From an uncultured Anaerolineaceae bacterium (GTDB taxonomy: Bacteria; Chloroflexota; Anaerolineae; JAAYZQ01), in assembly GCA_964593865.1 (NCBI GenBank), contig CAZQKE010000089.1, positions 1,358-65,357 of the forward strand: DNA of 64,000 bases, written 5' to 3'. Position 1 is the first letter of the stretch, and each line of letters starts with the position of its first letter. The notes under the pieces are model-generated. The model was not told the DNA's origin. It ran no database searches and saw nothing but the letters and a program-made list of their open reading frames with translations. Of the stretch, positions 13,884-22,442 are shown one piece after another. The position numbers and the translations under genes are program-made.

Positions 13884-14291
13884 TCACCTGTCTCCGCCGT
13901 TGGCGGGTGACTTGTAAGAGCGGAGGACGCGTTCTATGCGGGCGATCAGCTCACGGCGCGGCAGTTTTGATTTGACGATAAAATCCTGCAGGTCGGTGCG
14001 GGCCAGCCACATGAGTTGATCAAAGGGTGAATCCAAAGCGGTGAGGGCAATGACCGGGATGTCACGGATGGCGGGGTCCTCTTTTTTGTGGAGCAGCACC
14101 TCCGCACCGTCCATGCCGGGCATCATCAGGTCCAAGAGGACCAGATCGGGTGATTCGCGGCGCATGGCCTCCAGCCCGGCTTCTCCTCCTTCCGCGCCGA
14201 TCACGTCGTACCCCGCTTTGCTCAAGACCAGGCTGATGTACTCAATCATATCGGGGTCGTCTTCAATGCACAAGATCTTGGCCTGGGTCAT
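13884..14291 (-). CDS. Single-domain response regulator (CheY-like receiver)
   Basis: KILCIEDDPDM, phospho-acceptor region LVLLDLMMPGMDG, and a conserved Lys region. Start trimmed to MTQAK (ATG at 14291). The longer track ORF is an upstream extension. Confidence 0.8.
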   Translation of the reverse strand: MTQAKILCIEDDPDMIEYISLVLSKAGYDVIGAEGGEAGLEAMRRESPDLVLLDLMMPGMDGAEVLLHKKEDPAIRDIPVIALTALDSPFDQLMWLARTDLQDFIVKSKLPRRELIARIERVLRSYKSPANGGDR

Positions 14292-14749
14292 TCCCCTTTC
14301 CCCTCCTGAGCGGTCAGGGCCGCATCGATGGCCGCCAGTAATTCTTTGCGCTTGAAGGGCTTGGTGATGTAATCCTTGATCTCGGTATGCTCCCGCCACA
14401 TGATCTGATCAAACGGTGAGGAAAGAGCCGTCACGGCGATCACCGGAATATCACAGATGAGTGGGTCTTGGCCTTTTTCGAGCAGGACCGCTGCGCCGTC
14501 CATGTTGGGCATCATCAGGTCCAACAGCACCAGGTTGGGGCGGTGCTGCCTCATCATCTGCAGCCCTTCCATCCCGTCGCGGGCCACCAGGACCTCATAG
14601 CCCGCCGCTTCCAGGATGAGCCGCAACAGGTCCTGCATCCCCGGTTCATCTTCCATGCACAAAATACGCCCTCTCACTTCAATCACGCTCCCTCCCCAGA
14701 GGACATTGCCCAATCCATTGTAACAGAATCGGGGGTGAAAGTCAAACAT
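14288..14749 (-). CDS. Single-domain response regulator (CheY-like receiver), paralog of the downstream one
   Basis: RILCMEDEPGM, LVLLDLMMPNMDG. The start is uncertain and may be the internal GTG near VIEVRG. Confidence 0.7.
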   Translation of the reverse strand: MFDFHPRFCYNGLGNVLWGGSVIEVRGRILCMEDEPGMQDLLRLILEAAGYEVLVARDGMEGLQMMRQHRPNLVLLDLMMPNMDGAAVLLEKGQDPLICDIPVIAVTALSSPFDQIMWREHTEIKDYITKPFKRKELLAAIDAALTAQEGKGE

Positions 14750-14926
14750 GGTCGGTCAATGTTAGAGTTCGGGCCACAGGCCGTATTGCCCTTGCCCGAA
14801 ACCCAAAAGTGGATTTTGCATTTCCCCCTTGAATGAGGTATAATCGCTCCGGTTTGGCGGAACCCACCCTGGCCACAGAAGTTGTTTGCGGATGGCCCGG
14901 TACACCCCGACCGAGATAGGTGTGTG

Positions 14927-17782
14927 ATGCGAAAGGTTCGGTCTCATCCCTTCCTCTGGGCCGTGCTGAACCTGACCGGCTTGACGGCGGTCATCATCCT
15001 GCTGGCCTGGTTGTGGCGTAGACGGAAAACGGTCCGTCTCGCGCCGCCGCGCCGCGCCGTCCCCTCCGTCATCCCCACCGACATCCGGGGGTTGACCCAA
15101 TCCGAGGCAAAAGCCCGCCGCCAAGAGGGCCAGGATAACGCCATCTTTGCCACGCCGCCGCGCACCGTCCGCGACATCTGGCGCGAGAACCTCTATACCG
15201 TTTTCAATTTCAGTCTGGTGGGATTGGCCGTCGCCCAGTTGATTCTGGGCCAGCCCCTGGGCGCATTGGTCAGCTTGGGAACCATCTTTTTGAACATCGG
15301 CCTCAACATTGCCCAGGAGATGCTGGCCCGCCGTCGTCTGCGGGCCGTCGAGCAAGCCGGGCGGCCCCAGGCTACCGCCATTCGGGAAGGCCGCGTCCAC
15401 AGCATAGACCCTGCCGAGATCGTCGTCGGCGATGCGTTGGTCGTCGGCCCCGGCGACCAGGTGTTGGCCGACGGTGTGTTGATCGGCCGGGGCCGGATCG
15501 TGGTGGATGAGGCGATGTTGGGCCGGGGGCGGCGGGTTCCTAAAGGACCGGGCGATCCCCTCTACGCCGGTAGCATCTGCCTAGATGGGCGGGCCGTCTA
15601 CGAAGTGCAGCGGGTGGGTGATGAACGGCTCATTGCCATCCGGCTCAAAGAGGCCCCTGCCGCCCGCCCCGAATCGACCCCCCTGGAGCGGATCGTTGAG
15701 CGGGTTCTGTGGGTGTTGCTGGGCGTCGTCGCCCTACTGACCCTCCTGCTGCTGGGCGTCTACTTCCGGCTGGACCGGGCGTTGCAGGTGGATGTGGAAC
15801 CCTTTACCGATGCCGTTTCGGTCATTTTTAACATTGCCCCCAGCAGCCTTTATTTTATGATCGTGCTGACCTACGCGGCAGGTACGGCGGACCTGGCCCG
15901 CTTGGGTGCGCTGGTACACCGCGCCCGGTCCGTCGAATCGCTGGCCCAGGCGACGGTCGTTTGCTTTGCGCAGGCGGGGTTCCTCACCGGAACCCATGTT
16001 GAGATGCAGCCCATCGCTCCGCCGGAAGGCCACGAACCGGTGGCCGAATCGCGGCTGCGGCAGATCCTGGGCGATTTCGTGCGCAACACCTCCCTGGATA
16101 ACCTGGCGACGCGGGCCATGCTTTCGGTGTTTGAAGGGACGCCGCGCACGGTGCGGGAAGAAGCTCCCTTCCTCTCGGTCTACGGTTGGTGTGCCGTCGC
16201 CTTTGACGATGACGACCTGCAGGGCGTCTACATCTTGGGCGAGCGGGAAGCGTTGGCGCCATGCCTGCCCGCCGGAGGCGAAGCTCCACCGCCGGAGGGC
16301 GGGGCGGTGGAGGTGGGCCGTCAGGTGCTGGACAAGATCGCCTCCCCCCTGGGGCGTCTCTTCCGCCGCCCTGCGCCTCGGCCTGAAGGGACGCTCTCCC
16401 AAGAGCTGCGCCCCATCTCCCCTGCTGCAGGGCCGGGTGCCGCAACGCAGACGCCTGCTCTTTCGGAGGAGGAGCCACCCCGCAAAGGATTTTGGCGGCG
16501 ACTGGGCGGAGAGCGGGGGGCGGGCCTGCTGCGGAAGTTGGGCGGGCGGTTGGGCACGCTCCTGCGCCGGGGGGAAAAGCCGGATGGAGGAGCGGCCCCG
16601 GAGCGCGAGCCGTTGCAGGAAACCGTCTTGCTGTTCGCCTACACGCCGGAGCTCCGACCGCTCCACGGGGCCGACGGACGCCCCCGCCTGCCTGCTCCAT
16701 TGATCCCCCTGTGCGAACTCCATTACACCGAGCAGGTCCGTCCCGAAGCGGTCGAAGCGATCCGCACCTTCACCGAAAGCGGCATCGGCGTCAAAGCCTT
16801 TACCTACGACGATCCGGCGCAGACGACGGCGATCTTGCGCCGGGCGGGGCTGGAGGAGTCCCTCCTGCGGACCATCACCGGGCCGGAGCTGGAGGCCCTC
16901 GGTGAGGAAGAGCGGCAGCAGGCGGCGGAGGAGCACACCGTCTTTGGGCAGGTCACTCCCGAACAGGTGGGCGACCTGGTCCGCGATTTGCGCCGCCGGG
17001 GGGAATTGGTGGTCGTCGTCGGCGACCGGGTGAGCGATCTGCCTGCCATGCGCCGGGCCGATCTGGCCATCGCCCGCCAGAGCAGCAGCCAGGCCGCCCT
17101 CAGCGCGGCAGACATTGTGCTCCTGGGCGATTCGGCGGATGTGTTGCGGCGGGTGCTGGACAAGGGGCAACGCATCGGCCGCGGCCTGTTGGATGTGCTC
17201 AAACTGAACCTGACCCAGGTCTCCTATTTGGCGATCCTCATTCTGGCCCTTTATCTGCTTTCCGCCGGGTTCCCTTTCAGATCGGGGCAGGTGACGGTCA
17301 TCAACCTGGTTACCGTTGCTCTGCCGGCGGCCGGCTTTTCCCTGTGGGCCAGGGCGGGCGTCCTGCCCCGCAGGGGATTGGGCCGCATTCTGGCCCGCTT
17401 TGTGTTGCCCGCGGCCCTGACCCTGGGCACGGCAGCCGTCCTCACCTACCGCCATTTCTGGCTCCGAAGCGGGGAAATGGATTATGCCCGGCAGGCCATC
17501 ACCCACCTGTTGGTCCTGGCCGGGCTGGGGTTGGTGATGCTCATGTCCCCGCCCTTGCGGTTGGAGCGGGGGTTGCGGGTGCGCCTCGGCGATCCCCGTT
17601 TCACCGCCTTGGCCCTCTCCCTGCTGATCCTGTTCGTCGCCGCGACCGTCATCCCCCTGGCGCAAAAGTACCTGTTTATCGCCCCTTTGCACCGTCCGGC
17701 AGACTATACCCTGGTGGGGGCGGCAGCTCTGGCCTGCATTGCCGTCCTGCGCCTGGTTTGGACGGTGCTGCCGGTGGAATAG
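14927..17782 (+). CDS. P-type ATPase homolog with degenerate catalytic motifs (pseudo-ATPase) and a large low-complexity Pro/Gly/Arg-rich insertion
   Basis: Canonical P-type N-terminus (GLTQSEAKARRQEGQDN) and M1-M4 region. TGES is replaced by LGRGRR. DKTGTLT is replaced by FAQAGFLTGT, losing the phosphorylated Asp. GDGVND is replaced by GDRVSD. About 6 C-terminal TM helices. Upstream promoter TTGCAT-17-TATAAT at about 14813..14841. Confidence 0.7.
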   Translation: MRKVRSHPFLWAVLNLTGLTAVIILLAWLWRRRKTVRLAPPRRAVPSVIPTDIRGLTQSEAKARRQEGQDNAIFATPPRTVRDIWRENLYTVFNFSLVGLAVAQLILGQPLGALVSLGTIFLNIGLNIAQEMLARRRLRAVEQAGRPQATAIREGRVHSIDPAEIVVGDALVVGPGDQVLADGVLIGRGRIVVDEAMLGRGRRVPKGPGDPLYAGSICLDGRAVYEVQRVGDERLIAIRLKEAPAARPESTPLERIVERVLWVLLGVVALLTLLLLGVYFRLDRALQVDVEPFTDAVSVIFNIAPSSLYFMIVLTYAAGTADLARLGALVHRARSVESLAQATVVCFAQAGFLTGTHVEMQPIAPPEGHEPVAESRLRQILGDFVRNTSLDNLATRAMLSVFEGTPRTVREEAPFLSVYGWCAVAFDDDDLQGVYILGEREALAPCLPAGGEAPPPEGGAVEVGRQVLDKIASPLGRLFRRPAPRPEGTLSQELRPISPAAGPGAATQTPALSEEEPPRKGFWRRLGGERGAGLLRKLGGRLGTLLRRGEKPDGGAAPEREPLQETVLLFAYTPELRPLHGADGRPRLPAPLIPLCELHYTEQVRPEAVEAIRTFTESGIGVKAFTYDDPAQTTAILRRAGLEESLLRTITGPELEALGEEERQQAAEEHTVFGQVTPEQVGDLVRDLRRRGELVVVVGDRVSDLPAMRRADLAIARQSSSQAALSAADIVLLGDSADVLRRVLDKGQRIGRGLLDVLKLNLTQVSYLAILILALYLLSAGFPFRSGQVTVINLVTVALPAAGFSLWARAGVLPRRGLGRILARFVLPAALTLGTAAVLTYRHFWLRSGEMDYARQAITHLLVLAGLGLVMLMSPPLRLERGLRVRLGDPRFTALALSLLILFVAATVIPLAQKYLFIAPLHRPADYTLVGAAALACIAVLRLVWTVLPVE

Positions 17783-17791
17783 AGGTTGTTC

Positions 17792-18775
17792 ATGATGGAA
17801 GGAACCGTCGTCATCCGCAAGACGCCCTTTTTGTTTTTCAAACGCTTGATCCTGGTTGAATTCTTTTTCGCCCTTTTGCCGCTGGCACTCACCCTGCTTG
17901 CCGACCTGCGGGCCAGTTACGAAGCAACTCCCCTGGCGGCCAGTGTATCCTACCCTCTCCTGTTTGCCCTGGGAATTGCCACCCTGCAGGTGCTCATCCT
18001 CATCGTCGCTTTTGTGTTGTGGTATTTCCCCGTTTATGAAATAGACCGGGAGCGTGTTCTCTACCGTCGGGCCAATCTGTTTGAGGACCGGGTGCTGACC
18101 GCCACCCAGAGCATCACCGCCGTAGAACCACGGCAGAGCCGGTTAGGGCGGCGGTTGGGCTACGGCTCCCTCCTTATTTACAGCCGCGGGAACGACCGCC
18201 CGATCCACCTCCGCGACGTGCCCGATCCGGCCCGCCGCGCCGGGCAGATTTTGGCTCTGGTCGAGAAGCCACCCGCGCCTGACCGGGAACCCTCTTTGGC
18301 CGAGCTGCTTGCCCAGGGGGAAAATCAGCATGTGGAGTTCAAATCCAGCCTGCTGTGGGACTACCGTCGGCAAAAGGTGAACAAAGAGCTTTACGTCCCG
18401 GTGATGAAGAACATCGTCGCCTTCCTCAACACTACAGGGGGTACGCTGCTCATCGGTGTAGACGACGAAGGGCAGGTCCTGGGCTTGGAACCGGACTATC
18501 GCTCCATTCCCAAGCCCAATGCCGACGGTTTTGAGAATGTCTTCAACATGGCTTTCAACAAGATGATCGGCGTTGAATTCCGGCGGTTTGTAGACGTGCG
18601 CTTTGCCGAGATGGAGGGCAAGGAGGTCTGCATCGTTTCTGTGCGGCCTGCTTCCGAACCGGCGTTTTTGACCCACAAAGGGACGGAAACCTTTTACATC
18701 CGTGCCGGGAACGCAACCCAGCCCCTTTCGGTCAGCAAGGCGACCCACTATATCCGCGAGCATTTTGGGCAATGA
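17792..18775 (+). CDS. Membrane protein with N-terminal TM pair, YdbT-like bPH_2 domain, and C-terminal AlbA_2 (Schlafen-like putative nucleic-acid-binding) domain
   Basis: bPH_2: YEIDRERVLYRRANLFEDRVLTATQSITAVEP...LLIYSRG. AlbA_2: ENQHVEFKSSLL...IVAFLNTTGGTLLIGVDDEGQVLGLE...FYIRAGNATQPL. An AGAGG SD sits 6 nt before the ATG, 9 nt after the pseudo-ATPase stop. Confidence 0.7.
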   Translation: MMEGTVVIRKTPFLFFKRLILVEFFFALLPLALTLLADLRASYEATPLAASVSYPLLFALGIATLQVLILIVAFVLWYFPVYEIDRERVLYRRANLFEDRVLTATQSITAVEPRQSRLGRRLGYGSLLIYSRGNDRPIHLRDVPDPARRAGQILALVEKPPAPDREPSLAELLAQGENQHVEFKSSLLWDYRRQKVNKELYVPVMKNIVAFLNTTGGTLLIGVDDEGQVLGLEPDYRSIPKPNADGFENVFNMAFNKMIGVEFRRFVDVRFAEMEGKEVCIVSVRPASEPAFLTHKGTETFYIRAGNATQPLSVSKATHYIREHFGQ

Positions 18776-19278
18776 GCCGTCAAACCTTGCCGCGCTTTTC
18801 CGCTCTGTTGGATGTGGGCTGGAAACTGGCCCGTAGGCTTCTCTATGCCCGCTATCGGCTGGGGGCGGCGGCGGTTATCGTCAACGAAAGGGGGGAAGTG
18901 CTGCTGGTACAGCACAACTACGCCCGCCAGGATTGGACCCTGCCCGGTGGGGCGGCCGATCCCCGCGAGTCGATCACCGAGACGGCCCTGCGTGAAGTGC
19001 GCGAAGAGACCGGCTTGACGGTGGTGGCCGAGTATGTGACCGGCCTGTACTACGAGCAGGATCTGGATATGCTCAATGTGGTGTTTTGGTGCACTACGCC
19101 CGACGGGCGTTTTGATCTGCGGCCCGGCAGGGGAGAGATCAGCCGCTGTGCCTTTTGGCCGCCCGACGCCCTGCCCCGGCCCATCAGCGACTACACGGTG
19201 CTCCGCATCCGGGATGCCCTGGCCGGGGCGCGATACCCCTTGCCCACCGTCGTCGGCCCGCGCCGCTGGCTTGAGTAA
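18772..19278 (+). CDS. NUDIX hydrolase
   Basis: Nudix box GGAADPRESITETALREVREETGL. The start codon overlaps the upstream stop (ATGA), indicating translational coupling. Confidence 0.85.
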   Translation: MSRQTLPRFSALLDVGWKLARRLLYARYRLGAAAVIVNERGEVLLVQHNYARQDWTLPGGAADPRESITETALREVREETGLTVVAEYVTGLYYEQDLDMLNVVFWCTTPDGRFDLRPGRGEISRCAFWPPDALPRPISDYTVLRIRDALAGARYPLPTVVGPRRWLE

Positions 19279-19283
19279 ACGCC

Positions 19284-20105
19284 TTACCGTATGTCGTACA
19301 CGCCCCGCACCTGATTGAGCTTGACCCGTGTCACCTCGCGGGCCATGTTGAGCGATTCGTGGATGTAACGGGCCATCTCCCCCCGTTGGCCTTTGGTGTC
19401 GCTTTCGTCGCGGTTGCGCCATTCCACGCGGACCTCGCGAATGCGATACCCGGCCCGATCCACCAGAAACAGGAATTCAACGTCAAAAGCCGTGACCTTC
19501 CAGCCGGTGGGCCTTTCCGCACGGCGTAGGAACTCCAAGTGGGGAAAGATCTCCATTGCCACGGAGCGGCGGCAGAGCTTGAACCCGCACTGGGTGTCTT
19601 CAATTTCGGGCAGGAGAACCAGGCGGCGCAGGGTGAGGAAGACGATGCTGCCCACCTTGCGCAGCAGCGACGTTCCCTGCCGCACCGTCTGGCGCGAACC
19701 GATGACCACGTCGTACCCTTGTTCGTACCAGGGCAGCAGTTTATCCAATTCATAGATGGGGGTGGATTGGTCCATATCGGTAAAGAGGACGGCTTCCCCT
19801 CGCGCCTGCCGGATGCCGGCCCAGACGGCCGCCGGTTTGCCGCCGTGGGGGATGTCTAGGAGGGAAAAGTTTTCCTTGTTCCGGATGCTTTGTTCAATCA
19901 GGGCGCGGCTGCCATCGGTGGATTCGTCGTTGACGATGATGACTTCCCAGGGGAAGGTCTGCTCCGTGAGATAGGCGTACACCTCGTCCAATACGCCTCG
20001 TTCCAGGTTTTTCGCCTCGTTGTAGCATGGGATCACAACAGAAATCATCGGCTCTGTCTCGCTGGCATAGTCTCCCGGCACAGGTCCAGGGTCTTCATGA
20101 TACAC
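19284..20105 (-). CDS. Family 2 glycosyltransferase (polyprenol-phosphate sugar transferase-like)
   Basis: ISVVIPCYNEAKNL, IIVNDESTDGS, and a DxD-like region. The start is uncertain and could be the MISVV Met at about 20048. Confidence 0.75.
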   Translation of the reverse strand: MYHEDPGPVPGDYASETEPMISVVIPCYNEAKNLERGVLDEVYAYLTEQTFPWEVIIVNDESTDGSRALIEQSIRNKENFSLLDIPHGGKPAAVWAGIRQARGEAVLFTDMDQSTPIYELDKLLPWYEQGYDVVIGSRQTVRQGTSLLRKVGSIVFLTLRRLVLLPEIEDTQCGFKLCRRSVAMEIFPHLEFLRRAERPTGWKVTAFDVEFLFLVDRAGYRIREVRVEWRNRDESDTKGQRGEMARYIHESLNMAREVTRVKLNQVRGVYDIR

Positions 20106-20771: not shown

Positions 20772-21545
20772 CTACTGTTTGATGTTCTCCTGAAGCCAGG
20801 TGGAGTATTCAAATTCACCCTGCAACCCAATGGCTCTGCCACCCTTGAGGGAACTTTCGGGAAGTACGGTGTAGTAGCCAAACCTACCTGTGAGCGACCG
20901 AGGTTCCTGGTCGAACCCGATTTTAGGCTTGTTTGGATAACGCTCGATGTCTCCGGGAAACACGTGGACGTAGAGGCCTTGCCGACTTTGGTACACGCGC
21001 ACCCACGTAAGGGTCAATGCAAGACTGTTTAGAGGCATACCGCCATCAATATCATTCACAAGCGGTGGTATCTGAAAACTGGTATCAACATAAAATTCAG
21101 CAGTGCTTTTATCGGAAACTTGTGCAATTATGGGAACAACGTCGCTCAACGGCTGCTGAAGAATGTCGCCGTATTGAGGCCAGATGTACCTGCCTTGCAC
21201 CTGAAAGAATAGAATATCTTTGAATAAAGTGTAGGGAACGGGTGGCCCATCATAAATGACCCGAAATGACCCCGTTGCTTTGCCGTCCGTGGTTACTTGC
21301 AGATCATCAGACGTCCAGGAAACTACATACTGTTGAGTAAATCCCCTGTTGTCAAGTTCGTTAAATGTCATTGCACCCACGAAGATTGGTATTTCTTTTA
21401 GGGAAGCCATAGGTGTTGCATATACAGGCCAATCTGATGTTAGGGTTGGGGTTGGTGCAATCGATTGTAAGCCGCAACTACTCAAACAAAACAGGGCACA
21501 AATACCCCCGATGATTTGTGGCACCAATCTTTGCCTTTCCATCAT
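20772..21545 (-). CDS. Lipoprotein of unknown function encoded in a low-GC islet
   Basis: Signal peptide with lipobox MMERQRLVPQIIGGICALFCLSSCG. The region around 20715..21560 is clearly AT-richer than its flanks. The track ORF extends to 22037 across the repeat and is an over-extension. Confidence 0.55.
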   Translation of the reverse strand: MMERQRLVPQIIGGICALFCLSSCGLQSIAPTPTLTSDWPVYATPMASLKEIPIFVGAMTFNELDNRGFTQQYVVSWTSDDLQVTTDGKATGSFRVIYDGPPVPYTLFKDILFFQVQGRYIWPQYGDILQQPLSDVVPIIAQVSDKSTAEFYVDTSFQIPPLVNDIDGGMPLNSLALTLTWVRVYQSRQGLYVHVFPGDIERYPNKPKIGFDQEPRSLTGRFGYYTVLPESSLKGGRAIGLQGEFEYSTWLQENIKQ

Positions 21546-21583
21546 TGAACAATCCCTTCGGCGACCGCTTCTTCGGTTTGTGT

Positions 21584-21740
21584 CGTAGAAAATAGCGGTT
21601 GAAACCGCCCCTGGCGGGTTGTTGGCCGACCGCCCGCCTGCGCGGGCGGAAGCGGGAGCGCCCGCGTAGGCAAACGCCCGGCCCCAGGCCCGAAAGGAGC
21701 GACTTGAGTCGCCACTTGGCGATGAGCCGGGGATCGGTCC
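21584..21740 (-). repeat. Copy A of a GC-rich hairpin-forming intergenic repeat family (longest copy; carries an internal ~50-nt insertion relative to copy B)
   Basis: Shares TAGAAAAT-GCGGTTGAAACCGC-GGCGG-GTTGGCCGACCGCCCG...ACTTGAGTCGCCAC with 25527..25640 in opposite orientation. The same frame translates to RSANNPPGAVSTAIFY in both copies. Confidence 0.6.
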
Positions 21741-21920
21741 GCTTCCTGCGTTCTGACGAAGCAACACCGCGCGCAAACCGACCGGGCGCCCCGGTATCAC
21801 AGCCCCATTATACAACAAGGCGTACCTGTTGACAACTGGCACGCTTGCGTTCCGGCGCGGGCCGGGGACGGACGCTTCCGGGCGGAGCAAAACAGGGGGC
21901 CGCGAGTCCGGCATTCGCCA

Positions 21921-21949
21921 TTTGTCAAAACAGGGACTCTTTGTTATAG
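21921..21949 (+). promoter_or_regulatory. Candidate promoter of the uspA-transporter operon (-35 TTGTCA, 17-nt spacer, -10 TATAGT)
   Basis: Sequence ttgtcaaaacagggactctttgttatagt, about 50 nt upstream of the 21999 start. Confidence 0.35.
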
Positions 21950-21998
21950 TGCCCCCACCGACGAAAGCCGAAGGCAAAACAGATGATGGAGGTAGCTC

Positions 21999-22442
21999 AT
22001 GGGAGGCATCATTTGCGCCATCCGAGGCGGGCCGCACAGCCGACCTACCATCGCCAGGGCCATCGCCCTGGCCCAGGAAACAGGCCAGCCGCTCTACTTT
22101 TTGTATGTGGTCAACCTGGATTTTCTATCCCACACCAGCAGCACCCGCGTCCACACCATTTCGGAGGAGATGGACCAGATGGGCGATTTCATCCTGCTCA
22201 TGGCCAAGGATGAGGCAGCCCGCCATCGGGTCGAAGCCCAGGGGGTGATCCGCCACGGCAACGTGCTGGACGAGATCATTGCCTTGTGCCATGAGCTCCG
22301 GGCCGAGTACCTGGTGCTGGGGCATCCCAAGATAGGCCGGGAGGACACGGTCTTCACCCACGAGCAGCTGCAGCGGTTCGTCGCCCGCATTGAGGAGCAG
22401 ACGGGGGCGAAGGTCATCCTGGCCGGGGAGGCGGTCCCATGA
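21999..22442 (+). CDS. Universal stress protein (UspA family)
   Basis: USP fold motifs: N-terminal ICAIRGGPHS and C-terminal ATP-binding-like VLGHPKIGRE...KVILAGE. Confidence 0.8.
   Translation: MGGIICAIRGGPHSRPTIARAIALAQETGQPLYFLYVVNLDFLSHTSSTRVHTISEEMDQMGDFILLMAKDEAARHRVEAQGVIRHGNVLDEIIALCHELRAEYLVLGHPKIGREDTVFTHEQLQRFVARIEEQTGAKVILAGEAVP

Follow-up and report, generated by a model that had tools for sequence, protein, structure and literature searches.

A conserved clade of P-type ATPase homologs without the catalytic aspartate in Chloroflexota, and the probable lineage-specific operon of one of its members

The phospho-aspartate is the defining feature of P-type ATPases. The FUPA families described by Chan et al. 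in 2010 reportedly include a fusion with a non-functional half (FUPA24) and isolated pseudogenes. In a census of P-type ATPases, the DKTGT motif was present in 99.77% of the sequences, and only 22 carried single point changes (PMC3896382). P1-P6 are listed in a 2023 review, along with "undescribed diversity" in prokaryotes (PMC10654040). The nearest conceptual precedent for retention of the P-type fold without the catalytic aspartate comes from alveolates, where flippase modules of guanylate cyclases (P4GC; Cryptosporidium, P4GC-beta, gregarines and Tetrahymena) lost the DKTGT aspartate and the glutamate, and the module is still needed (PMC13466520). Here we analyze a 64,000-nucleotide (nt) stretch of DNA from an uncultured Anaerolineaceae bacterium (contig CAZQKE010000089.1 of assembly GCA_964593865.1; hereafter, the window), which encodes a P-type ATPase homolog of 951 amino acids (aa) lacking the catalytic aspartate, followed by genes for a membrane protein with bPH_2 and AlbA_2 domains and for a Nudix hydrolase. 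Whereas the P4GC modules are eukaryotic, of the P4 type, fused to a cyclase and patchy in their losses, the ATPase homolog described here is prokaryotic and stand-alone, and belongs to a clade that is dead as a whole. The three-gene block is probably a lineage-specific operon built from three independently distributed, conserved families, with the ATPase homolog as a member of a clade of dead pseudoenzymes, rather than a dedicated three-part system.

The ATPase homolog retains the fold of the family. It matches the E1-E2_ATPase (100.2 bits; cut-off 28.1) and HAD hydrolase (38.7 bits; cut-off 26.4) families of Pfam as well as TIGR01494, the generic P-type model (108.4 bits; cut-off 62.3). We attempted to place the protein in a named P-type subfamily and rejected such a placement: TIGR01494 is the only NCBIfam model to pass, and neither the query nor the closest active relatives reach an equivalog cut-off. 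Hydropathy and an AlphaFold2 (AF2) model indicate a core of 10 transmembrane (TM) helices plus one additional N-terminal helix, and a hydrophobic N-terminal stretch is also present in the family consensus. The best Foldseek matches of the model are all P-type pumps (LMCA1, SPCA1, Pma1, MgtA and SERCA), with E values of ~1e-28 to 1e-24 for the first four. The E1-E2_ATPase and HAD domains together with the 10-TM core place the protein among P-type homologs, and the full P-type architecture claimed in the initial annotation is thus borne out by Pfam, TIGR01494, hydropathy and Foldseek. Among the Type II P-type ATPases (the five pumps named above), LMCA1 is the best sequence match in PDB. With these pumps, the ATPase homolog shares the E1-E2 A-domain, the HAD P-domain, the 10-TM core, the GLTxxEA motif, the proline of M4 and the GD...D motif. 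Unlike them, it lacks the DKTGT aspartate, the TGES glutamate, TGD, the P-domain lysine, the M4 glutamate and the M6 aspartate, and carries the extra N-terminal helix and a disordered basic insert of ~110 aa in the N-domain.

These losses were read residue by residue in a phmmer alignment to the Listeria Ca2+-ATPase LMCA1 (9euq, E=4e-41). The A-domain dephosphorylation loop, the phosphorylation site and the M4 ion site are all degenerate (Table 1). Furthermore, TGD reads TYD; PENK reads PEQV, with loss of the P-domain lysine; and the N-D pair of M6 is replaced with T-V (LVTV). In the query, the nucleophile position and the residues next to it are not acidic (TVVCFAQAGFLTGT), and a retained or shifted nucleophile was therefore rejected. 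Four defining features of functional pumps were each found lacking, namely, the DKTGT aspartate (for which the membership criterion is PROSITE PS00154); the TGES glutamate; the set of TGD, lysine and GDGVND, the last of which keeps the glycine and two aspartates; and the M4/M6 ligands. For this reason, the protein is not a member of the functional pumps. The suggested alignment against a functional pump therefore upholds the motif loss, with no phosphorylatable aspartate at or next to the site. The stronger statement, that every chemistry-bearing motif is mutated, stands for TGES and DKTGT, which are changed as originally read, and extends to TGD, the lysine, M4 and M6, but not fully to the GDRVSD sequence, where both aspartates survive.

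The same losses are found across a large clade. A word-indexed search recovered 365 proteins at E<=1e-10, and the column counts given here refer to the best 120 of these 365, which are 870-1069 aa long, 45-75% identical and, where named, come from metagenome-assembled genomes (MAGs) of Anaerolineae or Anaerolineales. DKTG is present at the phosphorylation site in none of the 120. The columns of this site are C120 F112 A103/S10/T5/P2 x A102 G117 I103 L116 T106 G118, yielding the consensus C-F-A-x-A-G-I-L-T-G with an invariant cysteine; some homologs carry a glutamate two positions past the nucleophile position, which is not the nucleophile site. The column of the TGES glutamate is a mixture (K34/E27/D21/Q16 of 120), so this position is unconstrained, and neither the TGD motif nor the P-domain lysine nor the M4 and M6 ion ligands are conserved in the clade. 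M4 follows the pattern A-P-(A/S)-(S/G)-L, with the A-P dipeptide nearly invariant, and the GDxxxD columns remain strongly conserved (G120, D110 and D118). With each GTDB species represented by a single genome, a scan yielded 45 loci with identity down to 37%, all from MAGs of Chloroflexota (Anaerolineae, Caldilineae, Ardenticatenaceae, Promineifilaceae and "Chloroflexia"), with one exception labeled Acidimicrobiia; the catalytic aspartate is absent at every one of these loci where the site is covered. DKTG is likewise missing from ~100 of the top 150 clusters (50% identity) recovered when 1.84 billion representatives were searched exhaustively with HMMER.

The nearest catalytically intact relatives are P-type ATPases of ~800-860 aa with 29-40% identity, which encompass the motifs DESLLTGESD, LCxDKTGTLT, (S/T)GD (ISGD), TPxQKE and GDGVNDVL. 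Like the dead clade, they have no glutamate in M4 (VPNGL or VPQGL) and no aspartate in M6, and display the M6 pattern ...T(V/L)x(I/L)P...; unlike the dead clade, they keep the catalytic motifs, and their alignment to the query is split into two segments, with the insert region left unmatched. They are likewise unclassified by NCBIfam, where TIGR01494 alone passes. P6 ATPases (CtpE/P6) have PEGL in M4 according to the 2023 review (PMC10654040), a motif that the intact relatives lack. Deeper dead branches read xKTGTLT, with the aspartate alone replaced by glycine or serine (P0253, P0256, P0268, P0269 and P0312), a pattern that fits stepwise decay, in which the nucleophile would have been lost first and the remainder of the motif decayed later. 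A divergent dead member, P0275, reads FDKADTLT, and these variants resemble a surviving succession of steps in the decay of the motif.

The dead clade is apparently an undescribed but real variant of a very well-known family. No description of it was found in the literature searched, where absence is not proof of absence, and the 2023 review does not mention it under the terms "pseudo", "inactive" or "degenerate" (PMC10654040). Source databases label its members "magnesium-transporting ATPase (P-type)" or "HAD-IC family P-type ATPase". The label of an Mg2+ or cation pump is almost certainly wrong for this clade, and such systematic mis-annotation distorts the inventories of Chloroflexota transporters derived from wastewater, sediment and groundwater metagenomes.

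Not only the replacement motif but also the basic insert of the dead clade is itself conserved. In the query, residues 450-563 are rich in glycine, proline and arginine (G20 P16 R15 L14 E12 A12), and an insert of 84-191 aa with both basic motifs conserved is present in all 120 close homologs. The insert sits between the conserved segments EEAPFLSVYGW...GVYVLGEP and VLLFAY...LIPLC, which indicates that the core of the N-domain is retained. With N-domain strands predicted on both flanks, the low-complexity stretch is an insertion within the N-domain and does not replace much of it, as had been supposed. The TM core of the family is conserved to the same degree as the cytoplasmic domains. The ratio of nonsynonymous to synonymous substitution rates (dN/dS) of the ATPase homolog is 0.19, as measured against its closest ortholog (P0002 at locus L046; 80% nt and 75% aa identity); therefore, we interpret the gene as a maintained pseudoenzyme rather than a decaying one. 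The high divergence, the low-complexity insert and the MAG-like source could all be expected of a decaying pseudogene or an assembly artefact, or else of a still-active pump with a shifted nucleophile, but these explanations are highly improbable. The open reading frame (ORF) is intact over 951 codons, and both the substitutions and the insert motifs recur in hundreds of homologs, which, jointly with the dN/dS value, argues against a pseudogene. An active pump is contradicted by the absence of aspartate or glutamate at or beside the nucleophile, a column occupied by A/S/T/P across the family, and by the concomitant loss of the TGES glutamate, TGD and the lysine.

With the phosphorylated aspartate, the TGES glutamate, TGD, the P-domain lysine and the M4/M6 ligands lost, the ATPase homolog would be incapable of the phospho-enzyme (Post-Albers) pumping cycle. 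It could regulate, sense or scaffold at the membrane without catalysis, reusing the coupling of cytoplasmic domains to membrane helices that is inherent in the fold. It may still bind Mg2+ or a nucleotide via the GD...D motif and the conserved Phe415 of the N-domain, and the arginine-rich motifs of the insert may serve as a docking or autoinhibitory element. The existence of a stand-alone, multi-copy dead clade under purifying selection suggests that the fold has been reused for a non-pumping purpose, and makes this clade a natural system to probe the coupling of the A, N and P domains to the membrane without ATP hydrolysis.

Several MAGs hold two or three dead ATPase genes (L001/L002, L006/L032, L010/L014/L041, L004/L030 and L044/L045), so the family appears to have expanded by duplication. 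Such multiplicity would also be compatible with a dead ATPase that regulates an active P-type paralog by hetero-oligomerization, as many pseudoenzymes do: a related active clade of ~820 aa with 29-40% identity exists, and the titles of PDB entries 8uy7 and 8uy8 and of bioRxiv 10.1101/2024.02.28.582502 call MgtA dimeric. We nevertheless consider a paralog partner unlikely because no active P-type ATPase is encoded beside any of 46 dead ATPase loci or within the window.

The second gene of the block encodes a protein in which the bPH_2 (PF03703; 33.4 bits, cut-off 22) and SLFN_AlbA_2 (PF04326; 77.5 bits, cut-off 25.3) domains follow two TM helices. The initially proposed membrane bPH_2-AlbA_2 architecture is thus confirmed, and the Pfam assignments made for all three proteins of the block score above the gathering cut-offs. 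In the AlbA_2 domain, E177, E182 and D225 are invariant among 25 family members, and a PDB profile search aligned GENQ.VEFK...GG.LLIGVDD with ...ESTHVEFK...GGYVLIGVDD in the nuclease lobe of SLFN14. AF2 yielded a model of good quality (predicted local distance difference test, pLDDT, of 83.6), and its Foldseek matches include DIP2311, the SAMD9 tRNase and DNA-binding domains, SLFN13/14/11 and bacterial PH domains (3dcx and 3hsa). The E-x4-E...D triad is catalytic in SLFN13 (PMC5862951), as are its counterparts in the prokaryotic tRNase Cash (PMC13462974). Judged by its sequence, the protein tethers a Schlafen-like domain to the membrane and, with its E-x4-E...D triad intact, has a putative nuclease activity. 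The family produced 883 matches at E<=1e-5, the best 120 of which are mostly ~330 aa long and 48-62% identical, and the dN/dS of the gene is 0.135 against its counterpart in a related contig (L132).

With the Schlafen nucleases (Cash, SLFN13/11/14 and the SAMD9 tRNase), the AlbA_2 protein shares the Pfam domain, the E-x4-E and GVDD motifs, and the fold; the fusion partners differ, being two TM helices and bPH_2 here but Csx15, Ago, helicase or GHKL modules in its Schlafen relatives. Unlike the Schlafen defense nucleases, the AlbA_2 protein is negative in PADLOC and has variable, housekeeping-like neighbors. With a bacterial PH domain behind a pair of N-terminal TM helices, it is reminiscent of YdbS/YdbT-type bPH_2 proteins, and the Joint Genome Institute (JGI) name for AlbA_2 relatives is "membrane protein YdbS with pleckstrin-like domain", but the protein of the window differs in its C-terminal Schlafen-like domain.

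The third gene is a Nudix hydrolase, as initially annotated, on the strength of the Pfam score (71.1 bits; cut-off 21.1) and a canonical Nudix box. No substrate-specific NCBIfam equivalog cut-off is reached, and the dN/dS is 0.07 against L132. The protein appears to be an ordinary, active-looking member of its family.

The initial annotation had proposed a membrane sensor-effector module composed of the three gene products and had named the lack of synteny in other genomes as what would speak against it; lack of synteny is essentially what we found. The sample comprised 46 ATPase loci (45 genome loci and the 75%-identical ortholog) and 85 AlbA_2 loci (five long contigs and 80 metagenome loci), and on these loci conserved three-gene synteny was rejected. 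A homolog of the bPH_2-AlbA_2 protein or of the Nudix hydrolase was not detected within up to 8 kilobases (kb) of any of the 45 dead ATPase loci in genomes, nor of the 46 when the ortholog is included. The ortholog has a DUF308 gene upstream and genes for RadC and a GatB-like protein (the latter by sequence reading) downstream, and none of these three neighbors is found anywhere in the window. Conversely, no dead ATPase lies near a bPH_2-AlbA_2 gene in 85 loci, where the neighbors are variable, and Nudix matches, both weak, occur in only two. An AlbA_2-Nudix pair with the same 4-nt overlap recurs in three short contigs and is followed by an M24 peptidase gene in the two contigs where the downstream region is visible; because these contigs are 82-84% identical in DNA to the window, the pair is conserved at the lineage level only. 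Among the loci sampled, the ATPase-AlbA_2 junction is seen in the window alone.

A single module in which the ATPase relic acts as a sensor for AlbA_2 and Nudix effectors, in signaling, nucleotide-messenger turnover or phage defense, is therefore quite unlikely, although several observations favor it. The genes are tightly packed, being separated by 9 nt or overlapping at ATGA, and no convincing terminator intervenes; the AlbA_2-Nudix pair is retained in three contigs of close relatives; bPH_2-AlbA_2 genes lie 6-13 nt past active CopA-type pumps and near other P-type pumps in three lineages (see below); and prokaryotic Schlafen domains are proven defense nucleases (PMC13462974). Against these stand the empty neighborhoods of the dead ATPase; the different neighbors of the 75%-identical ortholog, even though one sample yielded both this ortholog and the AlbA_2-Nudix contig of the relatives; the scarcity of Nudix matches near AlbA_2; and ~30 Anaerolineae-type AlbA_2 loci without the ATPase. 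All three families behave as single chromosomal genes in varied contexts, unlike island cargo. Phage defense was rejected because PADLOC (PADLOC-DB 2.0) gave no match for the ATPase homolog or the AlbA_2 protein; its weak, domain-level matches are limited to the receivers encoded next to the block and the Nudix hydrolase (31 bits to the candidate system PDC-S07). The three-gene "system" is not worth pursuing as a unit.

The neighborhoods of the dead ATPase are diverse, with 121 Pfam families among 138 proteins within two genes on either side at the 45 genome loci. A conserved partner was sought and rejected: the sole recurrent neighbors, DUF308 and DUF1269, are enriched but far from universal. 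DUF308 (HdeD-like) genes are found at 7 of the 46 loci (L010, L011, L012, L015, L027, L033 and L046) and DUF1269 genes at 6 (L002, L006, L018, L020, L029 and L032), in one MAG beside both paralogs. DUF308 and DUF1269 genes also lie beside a bPH_2-AlbA_2 gene in L047 (7275-8328 and 12470-12967). This recurrence may point to a shared membrane-stress neighborhood. The small membrane proteins in these neighborhoods, along with TauE, MscS and bestrophin-like genes, might alternatively be taken to indicate passive transport, with the P-type membrane domain of the dead ATPase serving as a channel or facilitator independently of ATP. Retention of the helix-unwinding proline of M4, with small residues in place of the glutamate, and conservation of the TM core on a par with the cytoplasmic domains are compatible with this proposal. 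However, the canonical charged ion ligands of M4 and M6 are all lost, and a simple pore gives no reason to conserve the large cytoplasmic domains and the insert; we assign a low probability to a passive pore.

Elsewhere, bPH_2-AlbA_2 genes adjoin active pumps. Among distant AlbA_2 homologs (31-39% identity, on contigs with a G+C content of 36-47%), ten loci (L083, L087, L088, L092, L095, L097, L104, L105, L108 and L109) have a gene for an active CopA-type pump immediately upstream, in the same orientation. Where the two genes are adjacent, 6-13 nt separate them, or 69 nt at a single locus. All ten pumps contain DKTG and GDGxND, and TGE and CPx are found where the fragment covers them, with the scripted CPx match absent in two. 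L092 and L105 encode a different version of CopA (~45% identical to the others), and yet their AlbA_2 proteins are 77-87% identical to most of the group. In three further lineages (L113, L122 and L125; AlbA_2 proteins 40-46% identical), other active pumps, one Cd/Zn-type P1B and two P2A Ca-type, are encoded two to five genes from AlbA_2. After clustering at 65% identity, 3 of the 41 clusters have a P-type ATPase within four genes on either side, among 160 neighbor genes, for a Poisson P of 6e-4 to 3e-2 at background frequencies of 0.1-0.4%. The gene order is suggestive, not decisive, of an association beyond chance; no P-type pump lies near the ~30 Anaerolineae-type AlbA_2 loci. It is conceivable, but in our estimate rather unlikely, that bPH_2-AlbA_2 proteins are partners of P-type-fold proteins, such that the conformational or occupancy state of the pump, or of a sensor derived from a dead pump, gates a membrane-tethered RNA nuclease. 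If true, such gating would couple ion or membrane stress to translation control. In L092 (4120-4921) and L109 (4106-4907), two small ORFs of 157 and 106 aa separate the CopA and AlbA_2 genes; those of L092 have no Pfam match, and the CopA genes of the two loci are only ~43% identical even though the intervening ORFs are conserved.

Several points weigh against a lineage-specific operon of independent families with a dead ATPase. The 9-nt gap and the ATGA overlap resemble a functional operon, and, because AlbA_2 genes adjoin active pumps in other lineages, the ATPase-AlbA_2 adjacency in the window may not be pure chance. Synteny was assessed at loci recovered by pattern scans rather than by an exhaustive survey; for the ATPase homolog, AF2 yielded a model of moderate quality (pLDDT of 62.8 and predicted template modeling score, pTM, of 0.40); and the positive role of the dead ATPase is wholly inferred. 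Under the favored lineage-specific operon, co-transcription in this genome would reflect local gene order.

Table 1. Coordinates of the genes, domains, motifs and candidate control elements of the block within the window
Feature	Position	Strand	Description
Second stand-alone receiver gene	13884-14291	-	52% identical paralog of the first receiver; ATGA overlap with the stop of the first receiver gene (14288-14291)
First stand-alone CheY-like receiver gene	14288-14749	-	Response_reg (Pfam); likely start at GTG 14686
Second promoter-like site	14745-14717	-	TTGACT-17-TACAAT with TG extension; scanner
Sigma-70-like promoter candidate	14816-14844	+	TTGCAT-17-TATAAT; upstream of the ATPase homolog; sequence match
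Pseudo-P-type ATPase gene	14927-17782	+	951 aa from ATG; one extra N-terminal TM helix, 10-TM core, A, P and N domains; no catalytic Asp
Extra N-terminal TM helix	14945-15019	+	Residues 7-31 by hydropathy; AF2 helix 8-37; ahead of the GLTxxEA motif
Degenerate A-domain dephosphorylation loop	15518-15535	+	LGRGRR for LTGES; MLTGESEAV replaced with ML-GRGRRV
M4 ion site	15839-15850	+	PSSL for PEGL (PEAL in LMCA1); ion-binding Glu gone
Former phosphorylation site	15965-15982	+	FAQAGF for (S/T)DKTGT; CTDKTGTLT replaced with CFAQAGFLT; Ala at the nucleophile position
Disordered Gly/Pro/Arg-rich N-domain insert	16274-16615	+	114 aa, residues 450-563; pLDDT ~30
Basic motif PLGRLFRR	16346-16369	+	In the insert; conserved
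Basic motif LRKLGGRLGTLLRR	16529-16570	+	In the insert; family pattern FRR..RV...LRR
GDGVND remnant (Mg2+-binding motif)	17021-17038	+	TGDGVNDAPA replaced with VGDRVSDLPA; both Asp retained
bPH_2-AlbA_2 gene	17792-18775	+	327 aa; ATG 9 nt past the TAG stop of the ATPase gene
Two TM helices	17822-18046	+	Residues ~11-42 and 47-85; hydropathy
bPH_2 domain	18020-18235	+	Pfam
Schlafen-like AlbA_2 domain	18320-18727	+	Pfam
E177, E182 and D225	18320-18466	+	Family-invariant; E-x4-E pair; D225 in GVDD
Nudix gene	18772-19278	+	168 aa; ATGA overlap with the AlbA_2 gene
Canonical Nudix box GAADPRESITETALREVREETGL	18949-19017	+	Residues 60-82; fits the pattern G-x5-E-x7-R-E-U-x-E-E-x-G-U
Glycosyltransferase gene	19284-20105	-	Convergent; closes the three-gene block

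The spacing of the three genes is as first reported, and, given the 9-nt gap and the ATGA overlap, they are likely co-transcribed in this genome. The ATPase homolog has an alternative in-frame TTG at 14882 that would add 15 codons (966 aa). The two stand-alone receivers described as facing the block are present, with Response_reg scores of 81.8 and 72.2 bits, above the gathering cut-offs. By eye, both contain the acceptor-aspartate segment LVLLDLMMP as well as the T and K residues. They are paralogs in tandem, coupled in translation by the ATGA overlap, and they are followed downstream by cvpA and then mutS2 on the same (-) strand.

The candidate promoter sequence placed by the initial annotation in a 132-nt divergent spacer is present, but the spacer was measured up to TTG 14882, a start that does not fit the 951-aa product. 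A promoter scanner renders the same site as TTTGCA-18-TATAAT (10 of 12 matches) and detects four promoter-like sites against 0.8 expected in shuffled sequences. The annotated ATG of the first receiver (14749) lies upstream of the promoter-like site on the (-) strand, and GGAGG followed by GTG at 14686 is located 3' of that site, so that translation probably starts at this GTG rather than at the ATG, yielding a receiver of ~132 aa. With this start, the divergent region would be ~240 nt long, with back-to-back promoter-like sites ~70 nt apart. Beyond the glycosyltransferase gene, a 421-aa ORF (20772-22037, - strand) lies in a stretch with a G+C content of 0.565, compared with ~0.61-0.66 on both sides.

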